Virus record (IMG/VR): IMGVR_UViG_3300013121_000030
Coordinates: 128,001-192,000 of that record
From: an uncultured virus (IMG/VR IMGVR_UViG_3300013121_000030)
Taxonomy: Duplodnaviria; Heunggongvirae; Uroviricota; Caudoviricetes
DNA length: 64,000 nt
Strand: one strand, 5' to 3'
The notes beneath the pieces are model-generated. The model saw only the letters and a list, made by a program, of their open reading frames with translations. It was not told the DNA's origin and ran no database searches. This document shows positions 1 to 64,000 of the stretch, one piece after another (positions within the stretch are counted from its first letter, which is position 1; every line of letters starts with the position of its first letter). Made by a program: the position numbers and the translations under genes.

Positions 1-411
1 ATCGCAGTGAGCCTGGGCCTCCAGTACGGAGTGCCTTTGGAGGAGTACGTTGAGGCGTTTTGCTTCACTCGCTTTGAGCCCAATGGGCCGGTCTTCGGGC
101 ACCCCCACATCAAGATGTCGACGAGCATCATCGACTACATCTTCCGTGAGCTGGCAGTTACCTATTTGGAGAGGCACGATTTGGCACAAGTTCCGCCTTC
201 GGAGGATTTGAGGTCTTCCGCGGTGGAGATCGTCAAAGAGCTTCGGACTCCGGTTTTTGAGGTAGAAGATCGGAGTGTAGATACAATCCACATGGCTCGC
301 CTTCAGGGATATGAAGGCGAGGCATGTACTTCCTGCGGTTCCTTCACCATGGTCCGCAACGGGTCCTGTCTGAAATGTGTGAGCTGCGGAAATACTAGTG
401 GGTGCTCTTAG
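1..411 (+). CDS. nrdJ: Class II (B12-dependent) ribonucleotide reductase, C-terminal part (5' truncated)
   Basis: [30 protein letters not shown] and terminal Zn ribbon [23 protein letters not shown] typical of the NrdJ C-terminus; frame open to the window edge. Confidence 0.9.
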
Positions 412-457
412 TGAGAGACCATGAGGGGCCTCCATGAGGCCCCTCATGGTCTCTCAC
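411..457. terminator. Perfect 22-bp inverted repeat (hairpin) after nrdJ
   Basis: gtgagagaccatgaggggcctc-cat-gaggcccctcatggtctctcac; no U-tract, so terminator role is uncertain. Confidence 0.6.
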
Positions 458-485
458 AGACTACGCAAAATGGGTATTTTAGCCC

Positions 486-2732
486 ATGGCAAACAGGATC
501 TACAGAGGAATTGTCCGTAAGGTCGTTTTGGCGGGTTCGGACAATTTCTTCATTCTCAAAATGGACCTTGAGGATGAGGGGGAGGTGACCGTTGCGGGTT
601 CGGTGTTTGGGGTGTCAGTGGTTCGGGGGATGTCGTTGGCATTTGAGGGCGTACCCGATACTCACCCAAAATATGGTCCTCAGATCCGCATTGTGAGGGC
701 TCCTCTGACTCTTGCCGAGTGGTCATCGGGAGATGTCATAGAATTCTTGAGGGCATATGGGGCCGGAGATTTACTCCTCAAGAAAGTACGAGACTTCGCC
801 AGGGACAACCCTAATCAGTCCCTCTCGGAGGTCCTTGAAAAGGAGGAGCTTTCCCGGGAGAAGCTTGGGGAGGATGGTCCTCAACTCCACAGGATGTGGA
901 AGGTGTTGTCTGCGACAATCCAGGGGCATCAATTTCTCCATGGGATGGGGCTGACAGTTCCCCAGATTCAGGAGGTGTGGCGACGGTTGGGGGAGAAGAC
1001 TGTGGAGGTGGTGACTGAGGATCCTTGGGTTCTGTATGAGGCGGGGGTCCCGTTTGGGGTTGTGGATGAGATCACAACCAAGACAAAGACCAAGGCTTCT
1101 CCCACCTCCCCAAAGAGGATCGCCGCGAGCATGGCAGCAGTTGTGGGAAGGGGAGCGACAGAAGGACATTTGTTTTTGCCTGCCAGTTATGTGTTGGGGG
1201 CTGCCCAAGTCATGTGCCCGGAAGCCACACCAGAAGACCTGAAGAAGGGCATCCTGGCAGCTACAGAGGCAAAAATGCTGGTGGTCTCCAAGGACATGGG
1301 GGTGCCATTGATTTATCGGCATATGGCCTTTCAGGCCGAAGACCAGTCAGCGCGGTGGCTTGTGCGCCGTCTTTCCTCGGCGAAGCACTCCATGGTCAAT
1401 ATCCCCAAGGGGGAGGAACCACACCAGTGGGTGGAGCAATGGACAGCCCCCACGGGGATATCCTTGACGAGCGATCAGAAGACCGCAGTGGTCCGGGCTC
1501 TAGTTGAGCCCGTTTCAATTCTGACGGGTCTCCCTGGAACGGGGAAGACGATGACGCTTCGCATTGTCGTGAAAATCCTCAAGGATTTGGGGGAAAAATT
1601 TGCCCTCATGGCCCCCACAGGAATTGCCGCTAAGCGCATGGAAATCCTCACTGGATCCCCCGCAACCACAATCCATCGAGCTTTTCAGGCATCTCGTGTG
1701 GGACGTGTGGACAACGAGAGAGACTCTGATTACGCGGGGATTGTGGGTTCGTCGGTGGGGGTGGAGTGGGATGATGTGGATCAAGATTGGTCCAGAATGT
1801 TCGATGTTCGTCTCATCATTGTGGATGAGTGCAGCATGATGGACCAGGTGCTCCTGTGGAAGATCTTGGAGAACACTCCGGACACCTGTCGATTGATGTT
1901 TGTGGGAGATGCGGCGCAGCTCCCCTCCGTGGGCCCTGGGCAAGTCCTACATGAGATGATCCGCTCTGGCGCTTTTCCCGTCACGGACCTCAAAGACATT
2001 TTTCGTCAAAAACAGACCTCCCCAATTGTTTTTGCCTCTCATGCGATCCATCGAGGTGTCGACCCTATCCCCGGGGGAGACTTCGATTTCCGCCCCATTG
2101 CGTCCGAGGCGGATGTCGTGTCAGCGATTGAAGAGGAGGCAGTCCGTCTTTTTGAGAGAGCGGAATCGTTTCAGGTGTTGTCGCCTCGCCATAATGGGGA
2201 TGTGGGGGTGACTGAGCTAAATCGCAGATTGAGGATGAAAATCAATCCGGCGACGACTTCATCGCGGGAGGCCAAAATCGGGGGTGAGACCATCCGGGAG
2301 GGGGATCGGGTGATGGTCTGCAAAAACAATTACAGACTGTCAATCTACAATGGGGATATTGGCAAGGTTGTAGCAATTCAGTACGTTGCAGACAAAAGCA
2401 CAACAGTGATTGAGGTCAAGATCTTTGGAGCTGTGCCTACCTATGTCACATTGACTTTGGAGGAGGCAAGGACTTTGCTGCGGTTGGCCTATGCAATGAC
2501 GGTCCACAAGAGTCAAGGGCAGGAATACGAGAATATCCTCATGCCATGGACAATGTCGATGGGGAGGCAGCTCCAACGGACTCTTCTCTACACAGCGATA
2601 ACACGGGCCAAGCGACGGGTGGTTATTTTTGGTCACTGGGAGGCGGTCCAGCGTGCAGTGACAAATGCCGAGCAGGCGTCACGGAACACGTTTTTGGCGA
2701 AGCGCATCTCGGGGTATATGGGCTCGTTGTGA
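486..2732 (+). CDS. recD2: RecD2-like SF1B helicase
   Basis: N-terminal HPKYGPQ, Walker A GLPGTGKT, APTGIAAKR, TIHR, IVDECSM, VGDAAQLPSVGPG, AYAMTVHKSQGQE, LLYTAITRAK. Confidence 0.92.
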   Translation: MANRIYRGIVRKVVLAGSDNFFILKMDLEDEGEVTVAGSVFGVSVVRGMSLAFEGVPDTHPKYGPQIRIVRAPLTLAEWSSGDVIEFLRAYGAGDLLLKKVRDFARDNPNQSLSEVLEKEELSREKLGEDGPQLHRMWKVLSATIQGHQFLHGMGLTVPQIQEVWRRLGEKTVEVVTEDPWVLYEAGVPFGVVDEITTKTKTKASPTSPKRIAASMAAVVGRGATEGHLFLPASYVLGAAQVMCPEATPEDLKKGILAATEAKMLVVSKDMGVPLIYRHMAFQAEDQSARWLVRRLSSAKHSMVNIPKGEEPHQWVEQWTAPTGISLTSDQKTAVVRALVEPVSILTGLPGTGKTMTLRIVVKILKDLGEKFALMAPTGIAAKRMEILTGSPATTIHRAFQASRVGRVDNERDSDYAGIVGSSVGVEWDDVDQDWSRMFDVRLIIVDECSMMDQVLLWKILENTPDTCRLMFVGDAAQLPSVGPGQVLHEMIRSGAFPVTDLKDIFRQKQTSPIVFASHAIHRGVDPIPGGDFDFRPIASEADVVSAIEEEAVRLFERAESFQVLSPRHNGDVGVTELNRRLRMKINPATTSSREAKIGGETIREGDRVMVCKNNYRLSIYNGDIGKVVAIQYVADKSTTVIEVKIFGAVPTYVTLTLEEARTLLRLAYAMTVHKSQGQEYENILMPWTMSMGRQLQRTLLYTAITRAKRRVVIFGHWEAVQRAVTNAEQASRNTFLAKRISGYMGSL

Positions 2733-59729: not shown

Positions 59730-60587
59730 TCAGTCTTGGCTGGTCTCTTGGTCCTCATTGGAGCCGAGATTGGCCTCTCTGGGTGGCAATGCATTTTGAC
59801 CTGGGCCACAGGCATCGTGATCGCCGTCACTGCCGAACTCATCTGCTCTGTAGAGTGAGAGTTCGTGGAGAATGTCTCGAATCCAGGCGGTGTACAGCGA
59901 CTTGATTTCGTTGCTCTGCTGGGCGAGACGGAGCCAAGCGTCAAAATCCAGAGGGATCCGGAAAGACGGATTGTTGTCTTCGAGGGCAATCTTGTCGAAG
60001 ATCTTGAAAAGGTTGGAGGCGATCGTTCCCTCGCGGTCAATCTGTTTCGCTGCCTTGGCAGCGAGGGTTTTCTGCTGCTGGCTTAGAGCCGCCTTCCATG
60101 GCCTAATCTTCGGCTGGAACTTCTGGCGAATCTCCCCCATCCTCTTGGCGACGGGAGACTCTCCAGCCATCTTGACTCGGCCTGTCCTCTTGTACTCGTC
60201 CAGTCGGCTCATCCATGTGCTTTTGGGGAGCATGGGAGGCCGAGAGATGGTCACCTCGGCTTTCATGGATCCGAGGGAAAGTCTGATCTCTCGTAACGAA
60301 TTGTTACGGAGGCCCATTGCAAAGATCAAGTCGTTGGTCTCACGAAGGCATTCCTGTGAGAGGCGATCCATCGCATCCTCGGCCTCCATCTGGACAGCGG
60401 CACAGATGGTAGCCAGCATATCGATCTGATCTTTCACCTTGGATAAGGGTGAAAGATCAGAGTCGAATACTTCAATGATTTTTTTGAGAATGGCGTCTGA
60501 GGGGCTTGATGATCCCCCCTCGTTAATGTCGAGGCTCAGGACGGCTTGGTTCTCATCGAAATCGAGAGAAATGTGGGGCGATCTCAT
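59730..60587 (-). CDS. Hypothetical helical protein
   Basis: 285-aa ORF. Confidence 0.55.
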   Translation of the reverse strand: MRSPHISLDFDENQAVLSLDINEGGSSSPSDAILKKIIEVFDSDLSPLSKVKDQIDMLATICAAVQMEAEDAMDRLSQECLRETNDLIFAMGLRNNSLREIRLSLGSMKAEVTISRPPMLPKSTWMSRLDEYKRTGRVKMAGESPVAKRMGEIRQKFQPKIRPWKAALSQQQKTLAAKAAKQIDREGTIASNLFKIFDKIALEDNNPSFRIPLDFDAWLRLAQQSNEIKSLYTAWIRDILHELSLYRADEFGSDGDHDACGPGQNALPPREANLGSNEDQETSQD

Positions 60588-60898: not shown

Positions 60899-62017
60899 AT
60901 GACCCTCAAAGAGCGGCTGATTGTGTTGGTTGGATGTTCTCCTCGCACCTCACAACAAGAGTCAAGGCTTAAAACCTTGACACCTGACCACACCGACATG
61001 GTGTTGGGCTTTTTGGACGGAAATAAGTCGCAAGCACAACTTGCCAAAGAATTGAAGGTTGTGCCTTCCACAATCGGGCACAGGCTGGAGAATGTCCTCA
61101 AAATTCTGGAAGAGACTTCCCTGGAAGTGCCCGCCCCATACCCCCCTTATGAGGGGAAGAAGCCCTGGACACCTCCACCTTGGTGGTTCGGAGAAGAAAA
61201 ACCCGCAACAGGGGCGGGGAGTAAGCTGGTTGAGATATCTCCAACAATCGCCAGCGATATGTTGCGGTACAACCGCAAAAACCGCCCAATGAAGAAATCA
61301 CATTGGGAAAGACTTGCGCAGGCCATGTTGGATGGTGCGTTTGTTACAACTCCAGATGCGATCGCCTTCGATGTTTCTTCTAACCTGGTGAATGGTCAAC
61401 ATCGACTCCAAGCCCTCATTGCCGCCAATTCGTCCCTGAAATTTATTGTTAGCTGGGGTCATAACATGGATGCCTTCTGTTTTACCGATCGAGGGGCGAA
61501 AAGAACTGCGGGGGACGTTGCCAGCCTGGATGGCTTCAGGGATGGGAAAAAATGTAGGGCGATTGCCGCCCAGGCTATGGTTGTTTTGGATGCCTGGAAT
61601 GGTGGAAGTGCGGATTTTTCGAGATCTCGTTTGCTTGGGGACCATGATGTCCGCAATTGGATGTTGGCGCACCGAGAGGATCTGGAACATAGCTATGAGG
61701 CGACTCGTCATTTTTTCCCTTCAGCAATCTTCGGGGCTGTACACTTCGCCGTTGGCCTTGCTAACCAGCCAAGGCTAGAGGACGCTTTTCGCAGAGCCAA
61801 GGAAGGAACCGCACGTGACAAGGATGATCCCGCATACCATATGCGGCAGCTCAACGAGATTAAGGACCGAGGAAATGAGTGGGTCTTCAAACTGTTGAAG
61901 CTTGTTTCGCGGGAGCTTGAAGATTCCAAGGTCAAAGCTCTGAGGAAACAAAAAAAAGAGAAGCTTCCTGGACCCCCAGCCGGGTGGAGAAAAGACGCGG
62001 CTCCGGGGAAGTTGTAG
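60899..62017 (+). CDS. HTH plus ParB/Srx-like (GQHR) protein
   Basis: N-terminal HTH; NRP..M..G..IAFD..LVNGQHRLQA..DRG.KRT. Confidence 0.75.
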   Translation: MTLKERLIVLVGCSPRTSQQESRLKTLTPDHTDMVLGFLDGNKSQAQLAKELKVVPSTIGHRLENVLKILEETSLEVPAPYPPYEGKKPWTPPPWWFGEEKPATGAGSKLVEISPTIASDMLRYNRKNRPMKKSHWERLAQAMLDGAFVTTPDAIAFDVSSNLVNGQHRLQALIAANSSLKFIVSWGHNMDAFCFTDRGAKRTAGDVASLDGFRDGKKCRAIAAQAMVVLDAWNGGSADFSRSRLLGDHDVRNWMLAHREDLEHSYEATRHFFPSAIFGAVHFAVGLANQPRLEDAFRRAKEGTARDKDDPAYHMRQLNEIKDRGNEWVFKLLKLVSRELEDSKVKALRKQKKEKLPGPPAGWRKDAAPGKL

Positions 62018-62028
62018 ATCCGGCCTCC

Positions 62029-62877
62029 TCACCCAAGGAAGGACCTGGGGGACAGAATCCCTCGGCCAACGCTGGGACCGAAGGAGCTGCGGACGCCGAA
62101 GCCGAAGCGGGGCTGTTGGAGACCGCGGATGAACTTCACGGTTCGGGCCTTGTATTCGGCGGCCTTGTCGACCTGGCCCTCAGCGTTCTGCTTCAGGGAC
62201 TCGTACTGAGAGGACTTGTTGATGTCGAGGGAGATTCCCCCGATGGAGTACGAGAACTCATCTGCGACCCAGTTGGTGGCGAGAGCGAACAGGGCATGGA
62301 CGGCAGCCCCCCAAAGGATCCATGTGGACCAACCAGGCATTTGGGCACAGAGCTGGTCCAGGGTCTGGATGTTCATGGTGGAGGGAGGCATGGACATGAA
62401 CCAGTTGAGGCTCATCTCCAAATAGGTCTCCAGCTCGTAGTCCTCCCAAATGTAGCCGAAAACTCGGTTGTAGCGGCCTACGACTCCTTCTTGCTCTGGG
62501 GGACGGAACTTATAATTGCGGTCGGGGGAGTTGGAGACGAGAAGACCAGATCTCACAAGGAGGTATCGGGAGGGGTGGTCAACAGTTAGATCATATACAA
62601 AATGGTCCTTGGTGGATGTTCGGACCTCGACGGATCCCACCCCCCATGCCTCGTTTACTTGCTTAGCCTCAATTTTGAGGTCAAGGTCTACAAATATTTT
62701 GTGGTCGGGGGTCATTCGTGAAGACCCCACTGGGGTGGTGACCTCCACCATATCGTCGTCATTCGGAAACCGACGAACGGCGCCTATGCGGCGCCAGCAC
62801 AGGTTTCCCTCTTCATCAATGGTTTTGACGGCCAGAGATCCCTCGTGGTAGGCTTGGCGGATTTTATCGGCAATCAT
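62029..62877 (-). CDS. C-terminal piece of a fractured gene: IntC (62530-62877) plus C-extein
   Basis: Block B MTPDHKIF, block F VYDLTV, terminus LLVSN followed by +1 Ser (SPDRNYKFRPP). Confidence 0.85.
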   Translation of the reverse strand: MIADKIRQAYHEGSLAVKTIDEEGNLCWRRIGAVRRFPNDDDMVEVTTPVGSSRMTPDHKIFVDLDLKIEAKQVNEAWGVGSVEVRTSTKDHFVYDLTVDHPSRYLLVRSGLLVSNSPDRNYKFRPPEQEGVVGRYNRVFGYIWEDYELETYLEMSLNWFMSMPPSTMNIQTLDQLCAQMPGWSTWILWGAAVHALFALATNWVADEFSYSIGGISLDINKSSQYESLKQNAEGQVDKAAEYKARTVKFIRGLQQPRFGFGVRSSFGPSVGRGILSPRSFLG

Positions 62878-63767
62878 GTTCCCCACAACTCCTTCTCTGT
62901 CCAAATCTCAAAACCCCATCCCCGACTCTCGCTCAGTCTCTTTGAGAGGTCGAGTCTTCTCCACACCTTGTGGTCGGGGGAGAGTGTGAAAATCCAAGAA
63001 GCCTTGATTTCAACCAAGGTGATGTCGCCTCTTGTAAGATACAAGAGGAAATCCGGTTTGATGTGGTGGTTCTCAAAAAGGAAGGGGGGCTCATAATCAA
63101 ATTGTGCAACAGTTGGCATTCCCTCAATGATTTCTGCTGCACGAACTTCATAACTGGAACGAACCCAAAACCTAGGCGCTCGACATTTTTTGGGAGTAAT
63201 GTAGGATCCTTTTCCCCTGGACCATTTCACAGGGTCTTCTCCCATCCTCCTTGATTGCTCAACCGACCGTCTCAGTCTTTCTTGGGGAGACCTGTGGAAC
63301 TCCAGGAGATGGGCGCGATACGACTCGTCTTCCCATTTGGATTTTTGTTGGTCGCTGCGAATCCTTCGTTTCTCCTGAGTCCAGCCTTCTCGGAGGGCTT
63401 TGCGCTCTTCTGGTGTGCGGTGCCGTCCCCGGAGATGGTCAAAATCTCCAGCTCTCCACTGCCTCTCAAGTTGACCGGGGCGTTTCTTGCCTCTCCAACT
63501 CTCACCCTGAGTTCGAGCACTGGAGGCACGGTTCTGCTTACTGGAAGGATTCCACATTGCTGTGGTGAGATTTTGGATTGTCCCGTGGGACAGACCAGTG
63601 ATTGTCACCATTTCTCTCCATGTGGTTCCGGCAAGATGAAGCTCAGAGACAATTTTTTGTTTCTTCTCCTTGAATGGGGAAGCTCCTCGTCCTCGTTTAT
63701 GGAATTGCTCAAGAGTCAACCCGTTTTTTTCAAGGAGAGATTGAAGGATGGGATGAGGATTATTCAT
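62874..63767 (-). mobile_element. Free-standing homing endonuclease (TnsA-like PD-(D/E)XK with HTH and NUMOD3-like repeats)
   Basis: RSSYE..DYEP..KPDFLL..LVEIKA; HRTPEER and HRSPQER repeats; lies between the intein halves. Confidence 0.8.
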
Positions 63768-64000
63768 GTAGCCACCGTGGGGGGCCTTCTTCCTTCAGTA
63801 TCTCCCACAAATCTTTCATTGAAATCTCCAGTTGCGTCCCATCTACGTCAATTTCGATCATCTCATCGCCGGCTACACAGTTGTCCCGAAGCATGATGCG
63901 CAGCTTGTCGATCAGGCCAGCCACACATGTGGAGTAGACTTTTTGGCCTGTGGTACAGGATGAAGGATCGTCCACTCCGAATTCCTGAACTACAGTCTGG
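63760..64000 (-). CDS. N-terminal piece of a fractured gene: N-extein plus IntN (63763-63879)
   Basis: ..KLRIMLRDN|CVAGDEMIEI (block A); frame open to the window edge. Confidence 0.8.
   Translation of the reverse strand, partial: QTVVQEFGVDDPSSCTTGQKVYSTCVAGLIDKLRIMLRDNCVAGDEMIEIDVDGTQLEISMKDLWEILKEEGPPRWLHE

Follow-up and report, generated by a model that had tools for sequence, protein, structure and literature searches.

A fractured gene for a probable neck protein of a large phage carries an atypically split intein around a TnsA-like nuclease gene

The stretch analysed here (the window, 64,000 nucleotides) comprises bases 128001-192000 of the IMG/VR record IMGVR_UViG_3300013121_000030, a 234,244-bp virus record that is ~90% complete by CheckV and whose source is a large phage. 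At the right end of the window, on the minus strand, lies a fractured gene made up of three open reading frames (ORFs) that overlap at their stop and start codons. The first encodes the N-terminal part of a neck-adaptor-like protein (the N-extein) followed by an N-terminal intein fragment (IntN), the second a free-standing TnsA-like nuclease, and the third a C-terminal intein fragment (IntC) followed by the rest of the host protein (the C-extein). The features are as follows.

63880..64000, minus strand: 3' coding end of the N-extein (neck-adaptor-like protein, residues ~97-137), placed by the gap-free alignment of residues 1-137 to residues 1-137 of the homolog P0009.
63763..63879, minus strand: IntN, 39 codons (Cys1 codon 63877-63879), comprising the strands of block A and a single short helix; it is 65% identical to residues 1-37 of the contiguous intein in the relative P0006.
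63760-63762, minus strand: stop codon of the N-terminal ORF, read directly from the sequence.
63760..63767, minus strand: 8-nucleotide overlap of the nuclease ATG with the end of the N-terminal ORF (ATGAATAA), read directly from the sequence.
62874..63767, minus strand: predicted free-standing endonuclease gene, 297 amino acids (ORF 62877-63767, TGA stop 62874-62876), from fold, Pfam and invariant residues.
62877-63215, minus strand: C-terminal TnsA-like PD-(D/E)xK domain of the nuclease (about residues 185-297), from fold and Pfam PF08722.
63051-63053, 63009-63011 and 63003-63005, minus strand: predicted catalytic codons of the nuclease (Asp239, Glu253 and Lys255, respectively), invariant in the alignment.
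62874..62877, minus strand: ATGA, the 4-nucleotide overlap of the nuclease TGA with the IntC ATG, read directly from the sequence.
62530..62877, minus strand: IntC, 116 codons, with block B TPDH, block F VYDLTV..PSRY and block G LLVSN, and Asn116 at 62530-62532; from motifs and the family profile.
62029..62529, minus strand: C-extein, 166 codons from Ser+1 (62527-62529) plus the stop codon (62029-62031), from homolog alignment.

A preliminary description, made from the letters of the window, had listed three overlapping ORFs with a 39-residue IntN, a 297-residue nuclease and a 116-residue IntC, and every one of these elements proved correct against the sequence and the parent record. It also gave the end of the first ORF as we read it (...RIMLRDN/CVAGDEM...WLHE, then the stop; here and below the slash marks the splice junction), but this ORF is cut by the window end and runs 290 nucleotides beyond it, to a start at window-equivalent 64290 (G000:C1:192290). 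In the parent record it encodes 176 amino acids, comprising 137 of N-extein and 39 of IntN. The C-terminal ORF has its ATG at 62875-62877 (MIADK...), the start used by the public gene call P0005, giving 282 amino acids; an alternative TTG start at 62904 would make it 9 residues longer. The frame is the same for the IntN and IntC ORFs and different for the nuclease ORF, whose start Met aligns with the Met of its homologs. Among Logan contigs of independent runs on wastewater and activated sludge, those of X1 (~98% alike) and X2 (identical) bridge both ORF junctions with no indels reported, which excludes a frameshift artefact and rules out the possibility, raised earlier, that the three ORFs are one frameshifted contiguous intein. 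Parts of the locus that have no Logan contig cover in some runs carry no information. Contigs from RNA libraries (X14) touch parts of the locus, and such contigs do not demonstrate transcription.

The joined extein had been expected to match uninterrupted homologs, and it is indeed contiguous. Residues 1-137 of the N piece align without gaps to residues 1-137 of P0009, an uninterrupted protein of 302 residues, and residues 117-281 of the C piece align to P0009 residues 138-302 with 78% identity. The pieces abut exactly at P0009 137/138, the insertion thus being exact relative to intein-free homologs, and the two uninterrupted homologs that were read through (P0008 and P0009) have LRDN-NPDRNY across the junction. 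This position falls within the most conserved block of the family, where P139, D140, Y143, F145, P147 and P148 are invariant; inteins typically insert at highly conserved sites. A homolog search with the C-extein returned 913 relatives, and most of the 120 listed are proteins of 295-305 amino acids on phage contigs of up to 528 kb. In IMG/VR the family is encoded at 282 loci, the best 80 of which are nearly all uninterrupted.

The intein motifs are distributed unevenly over the two fragments, with block A in IntN and blocks B (TPDH), F (VYDLTV) and G (LLVSN/S) all in IntC. Cys1 follows LRDN directly and is conserved in all alleles at this site. The Thr and His of block B are invariant in the family alignment (A3), the C-terminal Asn of the intein is likewise invariant, and the +1 residue is Ser here and Ser or Cys in relatives. 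From these residues, assignment of the element running from Cys1 to Asn/Ser+1 as a class-1 intein, atypically split to leave a short IntN with block A only, appears well supported. Membership of the Hint superfamily, which the preliminary description had proposed, rests on the family profile together with the motifs, because the window's own pieces score below threshold. Alignment A3 comprises 12 members of the intein family, the window's IntC among them, and its profile has matches to 53 solved intein/Hint chains, led by the Pho RadA intein (E 1.6e-11) and then the KlbA, TFIIB, CDC21, PolII, DnaX, NrdJ-1, DnaE and RecA inteins. The profile aligns the body of IntC with residues 61-166 of the 168-residue Pho RadA intein, which puts the split well ahead of block B and a long way from the classical endonuclease-domain site. 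Single sequences were less informative: Pfam and PHROGs gave the window's own pieces only matches below threshold, the block A of IntN resembles PolII inteins weakly, a contiguous sister intein (that of P0006, described below) gave only weak block A matches to PolII inteins in the PDB (E 0.27), and a homolog search that used the intein of P0006 as query found no sequence other than P0006.

Docking of the two halves is predicted as well. Modelled together, IntC and IntN obtained a score of 0.71 (best of three controls, 0.00), a mark reached by 51 of 78 solved complexes and by 2 of 108 mismatched pairs, with at least 96% contact agreement between runs and a partner predicted local distance difference test score (pLDDT) of at least 81. 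In the predicted contacts the strands of IntN lie against the first strand of IntC and against its blocks B and F/G. This result may reflect likeness to solved split-intein structures instead of being independent evidence.

The gene between the two halves was called a TnsA-like endonuclease in the preliminary description, which the fold confirms. Its AlphaFold model (pLDDT 90.7) has TnsA structures, including 1t0f and 1f1z, as its three best PDB matches by Foldseek (E 3e-5 and 1e-4, probability 1.0). The N-terminal third is helix-turn-helix (HTH)-like, the middle consists of helical repeats and the C-terminal part is the TnsA-like PD-(D/E)xK domain. Against Pfam PF08722 (Tn7_TnsA-like_N) the window copy reaches E 0.0069 and 17.4 bits, below the gathering cut-off of 26.5, whereas its ortholog in L004 scores 27.4 bits, and 24 of 26 relatives match at E <=0.01 (best 9e-17). 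In an alignment of 26 members S204, E207, E226, D239, E253 and K255 are invariant, all of them are present in the window copy, and the E/D/ExK catalytic set is intact. By exhaustive HMMER search the family is small (174 clusters at E <=1e-3, of which 32 at E <=1e-30), and four distant relatives carry NUMOD3 motifs. The likeness to Tn7 TnsA (PDB 1f1z, 1t0f; PF08722) thus covers both the PD-(D/E)xK fold and the E...D...ExK residues. Unlike TnsA, the protein has no TnsA C-terminal domain and adds the HTH-like region and the helical repeats, and no Tn7-type partner genes (TnsB/TnsC) or transposon genes lie near the locus; paralogs of the nuclease, sought in the same genome, were not found either. 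As a stand-alone gene inside an intein, the nuclease would appear to work like a homing endonuclease and not as a transposase subunit. In the collection of papers that was searched, none combines TnsA, homing endonuclease and split intein.

Comparison of alleles shows empty, contiguous, split and decayed states at this one site. The closest relative, P0006 (locus L002), has a contiguous 170-residue mini-intein at the same position, with a 22-residue linker where the window has the nuclease gene. Its exteins are 89% (N) and 95% (C) identical to those of the window at the amino acid level, and this identity is kept regardless of synonymous sites that are saturated (proportion of synonymous differences, pS, ~0.85). 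DNA homology between the window and L002 ends at 63769, two bases from the nuclease ATG, and resumes inside IntC. A second contiguous-intein allele is P0065. The three-ORF layout was found in at least 17 metagenomic loci besides the window, with an IntN of 29-43 amino acids; examples are L003/L004, L013/L014, L015, L016, L017 and L018/L019. With a narrower nuclease alignment (A4) 14 nuclease-bearing loci were recovered from IMG/VR, of which 11 have the layout, and the nuclease always lies between host residues ~1-137 and ~137-302. Cys1, TxxH, the terminal Asn and Ser or Cys at +1 are kept in every locus read through. The nucleases of the split loci are only 26-48% identical to that of the window, which indicates that the layout is old and maintained.

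The nuclease gene is truncated or rearranged in L005, L107, L108, L111 and L113. In three of these the intein halves are intact around it: L113 (2471-3430) has an internal nuclease deletion and an in-frame fusion to IntC, L005 (4047-4942) retains a 125-residue remnant of the catalytic domain after a 500-nucleotide gap, and L111 (2501-2758) encodes only the last 85 residues of the nuclease. On a tree of 98 loci built from extein residues 1-229 (a biased sample of the best-scoring empty loci and all nuclease-bearing loci), the split state changes at least nine times, with seven changes forced by well-supported branches, and the window and L002 fall within a set of 11 empty alleles. Such a patchy distribution is consistent with gain and loss of a mobile element.

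The host protein is a probable phage neck adaptor or head-completion protein, as judged mainly from predicted structure; the earlier suggestion of a 'probable virion protein' thus gains moderate support from a fold that resembles neck adaptors. The model of the intact homolog P0009 (pLDDT 71) begins with an immunoglobulin (Ig)-like sandwich (residues 1-107), continues with a helical domain (120-267) and ends in a disordered tail. In an exhaustive structural comparison, the helical domain (residues 120-276 of the homolog model) gave Z 7.5-9.5 with a dozen or so adaptor or neck chains of phages, among them those of cyanophage A4 (9k09_d), GP4 (8jov_2), SU10 (7z47_A), phage 812, Carin-1, P-SCSP1u, Kp7, DEV and T4 gp13/gp14 (9lu4_D). 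It differs from these head-to-tail adaptors in its sequence (identity only 4-12%), in the extra N-terminal Ig-like domain, in having no Pfam match and in having no adjacent portal or capsid genes. ESM Atlas neighbours of the protein belong to the head-completion (HCP) and Phage_connect_1 families. Foldseek of the model against the PDB returned mostly generic Ig-like matches to the N-domain, comparison with BFVD mostly unnamed phage proteins, and the extein profile had no match among PDB sequences. A paralog of the N-terminal Ig-like domain (26-35% identity) is encoded ~0.3-2 kb upstream of the neck gene in L100, L102, L103, L106, L108, L111 and L113; in the window the gene for this paralog is not adjacent to the neck gene.

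We interpret the locus as a fractured gene, in which a nuclease gene was inserted into a mini-intein of a neck-type protein and the halves would rejoin by trans-splicing, a reading to which we give a probability of roughly 85%. The sequence of events would be as follows. A large-phage protein of ~303 amino acids, with an Ig-like N-domain and an adaptor-shaped helical domain, would have acquired a class-1 mini-intein at LRDN/N. A homing-endonuclease gene would then have entered the intein loop after the first two strands and the short helix, supplying a stop codon upstream and a start codon downstream, so that two polypeptides would be made, the N-extein-IntN of 176 amino acids and the IntC-C-extein of 282. 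The 39-residue IntN would dock into the incomplete Hint fold of IntC, Cys1 would form the thioester, Ser+1 would attack and Asn116 would cyclise, and the exteins would be joined as ...LRDN-SPDRNY... to give the full-length neck protein. The nuclease, for its part, would cut nuclease-free alleles of co-infecting phages, into which the cassette would be copied by repair.

Several results weigh against this interpretation. The penultimate residue of the intein, described beforehand as not His, is Ser (LLVSN/S), and the block F His (WHNF in most relatives) is replaced as well, the motif being PSRY here and PSRF in the contiguous sister allele; loss of these two His residues could slow Asn cyclisation. 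The window's intein pieces remain below Pfam thresholds (Intein_splicing E 0.015), and IntC alone, compared by sequence with the PDB, gave only noise. Saturation of synonymous sites means that no ratio of non-synonymous to synonymous change (dN/dS) can be obtained against the sister allele. As to the host protein, the neck-adaptor fold scores of the helical domain are moderate (Z 8-9.5, where values under ~13 are weak for helical folds), matches of the extein to PHROG 17327 'head-tail connector' are weak (E 0.018-0.053), and the neighbouring genes that were examined form no obvious structural module around the neck gene.

The missing penultimate and block F His would also suit a dead relic, a gene that the nuclease insertion broke and whose pieces are never joined, its loss being tolerated or another protein being used in its place. 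The decay of nuclease copies in some relatives points the same way, as does the doubly fractured copy of L018/L019, whose last piece was not found beside the gene. We give this explanation a small chance, since neither ORF is broken and all nucleophiles and TxxH are retained, since the C-extein keeps 95% identity to that of the sister allele despite saturated synonymous change, and since the split layout persists in at least 17 loci despite the divergence of their nucleases. In addition, the contiguous sister intein has the same PSR[FY] variant and must splice, because its host protein otherwise would not exist. A very small chance goes to association in place of splicing, with the intein halves holding the pieces together non-covalently or cleaving instead of ligating. 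The predicted complex shows docking alone and no chemistry, and intein-free fragmented phage genes whose products assemble non-covalently are documented (Aeh1 NrdA, PMC3045599). For association, however, Cys1, the block B Thr and His, the block F Asp, the terminal Asn and the +1 nucleophile would be needless, and all are conserved in every allele examined.

It is less probable again that the nuclease is a T4 gp4-like head-completion nuclease that works with the neck protein and not a selfish homing enzyme. The nuclease (P0002) has a weak match to PHROG 218 'head closure' (E 6.8e-4), which is explained by the TnsA-like domain that T4 gp4-type head completion nucleases contain (PMC7824862). Its HTH and NUMOD-type DNA-binding modules are, on the other hand, typical of homing endonucleases, and it is present in a single copy in the genome. 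A structural role is unlikely because the gene sits inside the intein loop, is found at this site in only 11 of the 282 IMG/VR loci encoding the neck-protein family, is scattered on the extein tree and decays in several loci. The chance of an assembly or frameshift artefact, the true state being one contiguous endonuclease-containing intein, is negligible: although the record was assembled from a metagenome, both junctions are crossed without indels by contigs of other samples and studies, the nuclease has its own frame and a Met aligned to that of its homologs, and at least 17 independent loci have the three-ORF layout as well.

The trans-splicing arrangement that we favour has close precedents. 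The fractured genes of Dassa et al. 2009, mainly from phage, have a free-standing endonuclease gene, GIY-YIG or Vsr-like, between the two halves of a split intein, and their endonuclease and IntC ORFs often overlap, by 6-69 bp (PMC2677866). The present locus resembles them in its same-strand split-intein ORFs, in the free-standing endonuclease gene between these, whose 3' end overlaps the start of IntC, and in its phage setting. It differs in its host, which is a neck-adaptor-like structural protein instead of a replication, nucleotide-metabolism or terminase enzyme, in its TnsA-like endonuclease and in its stop/start overlap of 4 nucleotides. One of their loci, Terminase, was 'fractured at an unusual point' and has a 122-residue C part lacking only motif N1 (PMC2677866); the geometry is the same here, where the 116-residue IntC lacks only block A. 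Among the rare and useful atypically split inteins that have been characterised, GOS-TerL has an IntN of 37 amino acids, AceL-TerL of 25 and PolB16 OarG of 15 (PMC11766414, PMC10189870, PMC11923092). These share the short IntN with block A only and the long IntC with blocks B, F and G, and the 39 residues found here (29-43 in relatives) are close to GOS-TerL. They differ in host and insertion site, while the intein described here has a Cys1/Ser+1 pair and a penultimate Ser and is known from sequence. Kinship to the TerL inteins did not emerge from profile A3, as the consensus TerL atypical intein (PDB 6DSL) is not among its 53 matches. The atypical split around a free-standing endonuclease, which the preliminary description had set apart from most known cases, is therefore present but has published precedent in the Dassa Terminase locus, GOS-TerL and AceL-TerL. 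The arrangement is already known; what is new is the host protein with its insertion site, and the TnsA-like nuclease family.

The neck gene also has a second intein site, ...ADEF/SYSIGG, seen in L013, L015, L103, L106 and L113; the window is without it. At L013 (3408-5786) it holds a Ser1/Ser+1 atypically split intein (IntN 36 amino acids, IntC 140) around a 324-residue DUF559/Vsr-like endonuclease gene. This copy is fractured at both sites, and the neck protein is therefore encoded there in three pieces. At L015 (2489-2965) the second intein is contiguous (159 amino acids), and small gaps in L106 and L113 suggest contiguous second inteins there too. L018 (3414-5097) and L019 (1967-3691) are doubly fractured, and the piece after the Vsr-like gene (IntC2 followed by SYSIGG...) was not found downstream. 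The gene call of L018 divides the Vsr-like gene into two ORFs, with a short unresolved stretch (X in translation) at the break. The L018/L019 copy may be a decayed allele, or its third piece may be encoded elsewhere.

Taken jointly, these alleles may represent an undescribed family of TnsA-fold homing endonucleases, with HTH region and helical repeats, that is specialised on one intein loop, and the inteins at the first site (IntN 29-43 amino acids, Cys1) may make up a large natural group of split inteins that have a short IntN, are active and are orthogonal to the TerL ones. We propose this broader reading tentatively, at somewhat less than even odds. If it is true, then this family, the neck gene's second site and the TerL and NrdA cases would jointly suggest that free-standing endonuclease genes have another general point of entry in the loop that follows the first intein helix, in addition to the classical endonuclease-domain site. 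The family brings a TnsA-fold enzyme into the set of candidate homing endonucleases. A structural, probably neck, protein of large phages could depend on protein trans-splicing. Naturally split inteins with a short IntN are few and are prized by protein chemists for semisynthesis and labelling, and papers on atypically split inteins report better aggregation resistance than that of inteins that were split artificially at the position of the endonuclease. Some twenty natural variants, their N-fragments 29-43 residues long, are available from this locus and its relatives, plus a contiguous sister intein with which they can be compared directly. One gene displays every stage, namely the empty site, the contiguous mini-intein, the endonuclease-split intein and the decaying endonuclease, and these are the stages proposed by the gene-breaking model of 2009.

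Between the neck gene and a gene for a 285-residue protein (59730-60587), the window has a 372-residue ParB-like gene on the opposite strand (60899-62017, plus strand; PHROG 5931, E 1e-33; ParB-like PHROG 1033, E 2.5e-5). In L002 the homolog of the 285-residue gene directly follows the neck gene, and contigs of the X1 and X4 runs diverge from the window at 62048, from which the ParB-like gene would seem to be an insert that varies between strains, and it may be a further mobile nuclease gene. In another phage a DUF7487 gene with PHROG 'homing endonuclease' matches lies just downstream of the neck gene (L005:6542-7330). The presence of this DUF7487 gene suggests that the neighbourhood of the neck gene is a hotspot for mobile nuclease genes. 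Elsewhere in the parent record, a class II ribonucleotide reductase of 1844 amino acids (NrdJ-type; G000:C1:123033 to ~128565, ending near window 1-565) contains two inteins, one of them with a LAGLIDADG domain, and a 976-residue ORF outside the window (G000:C1:63107-66000) has an intein with Hint and LAGLIDADG signals. The inteins of this phage thus number at least four: two in NrdJ, one in the 976-residue ORF and the split one in the neck gene.

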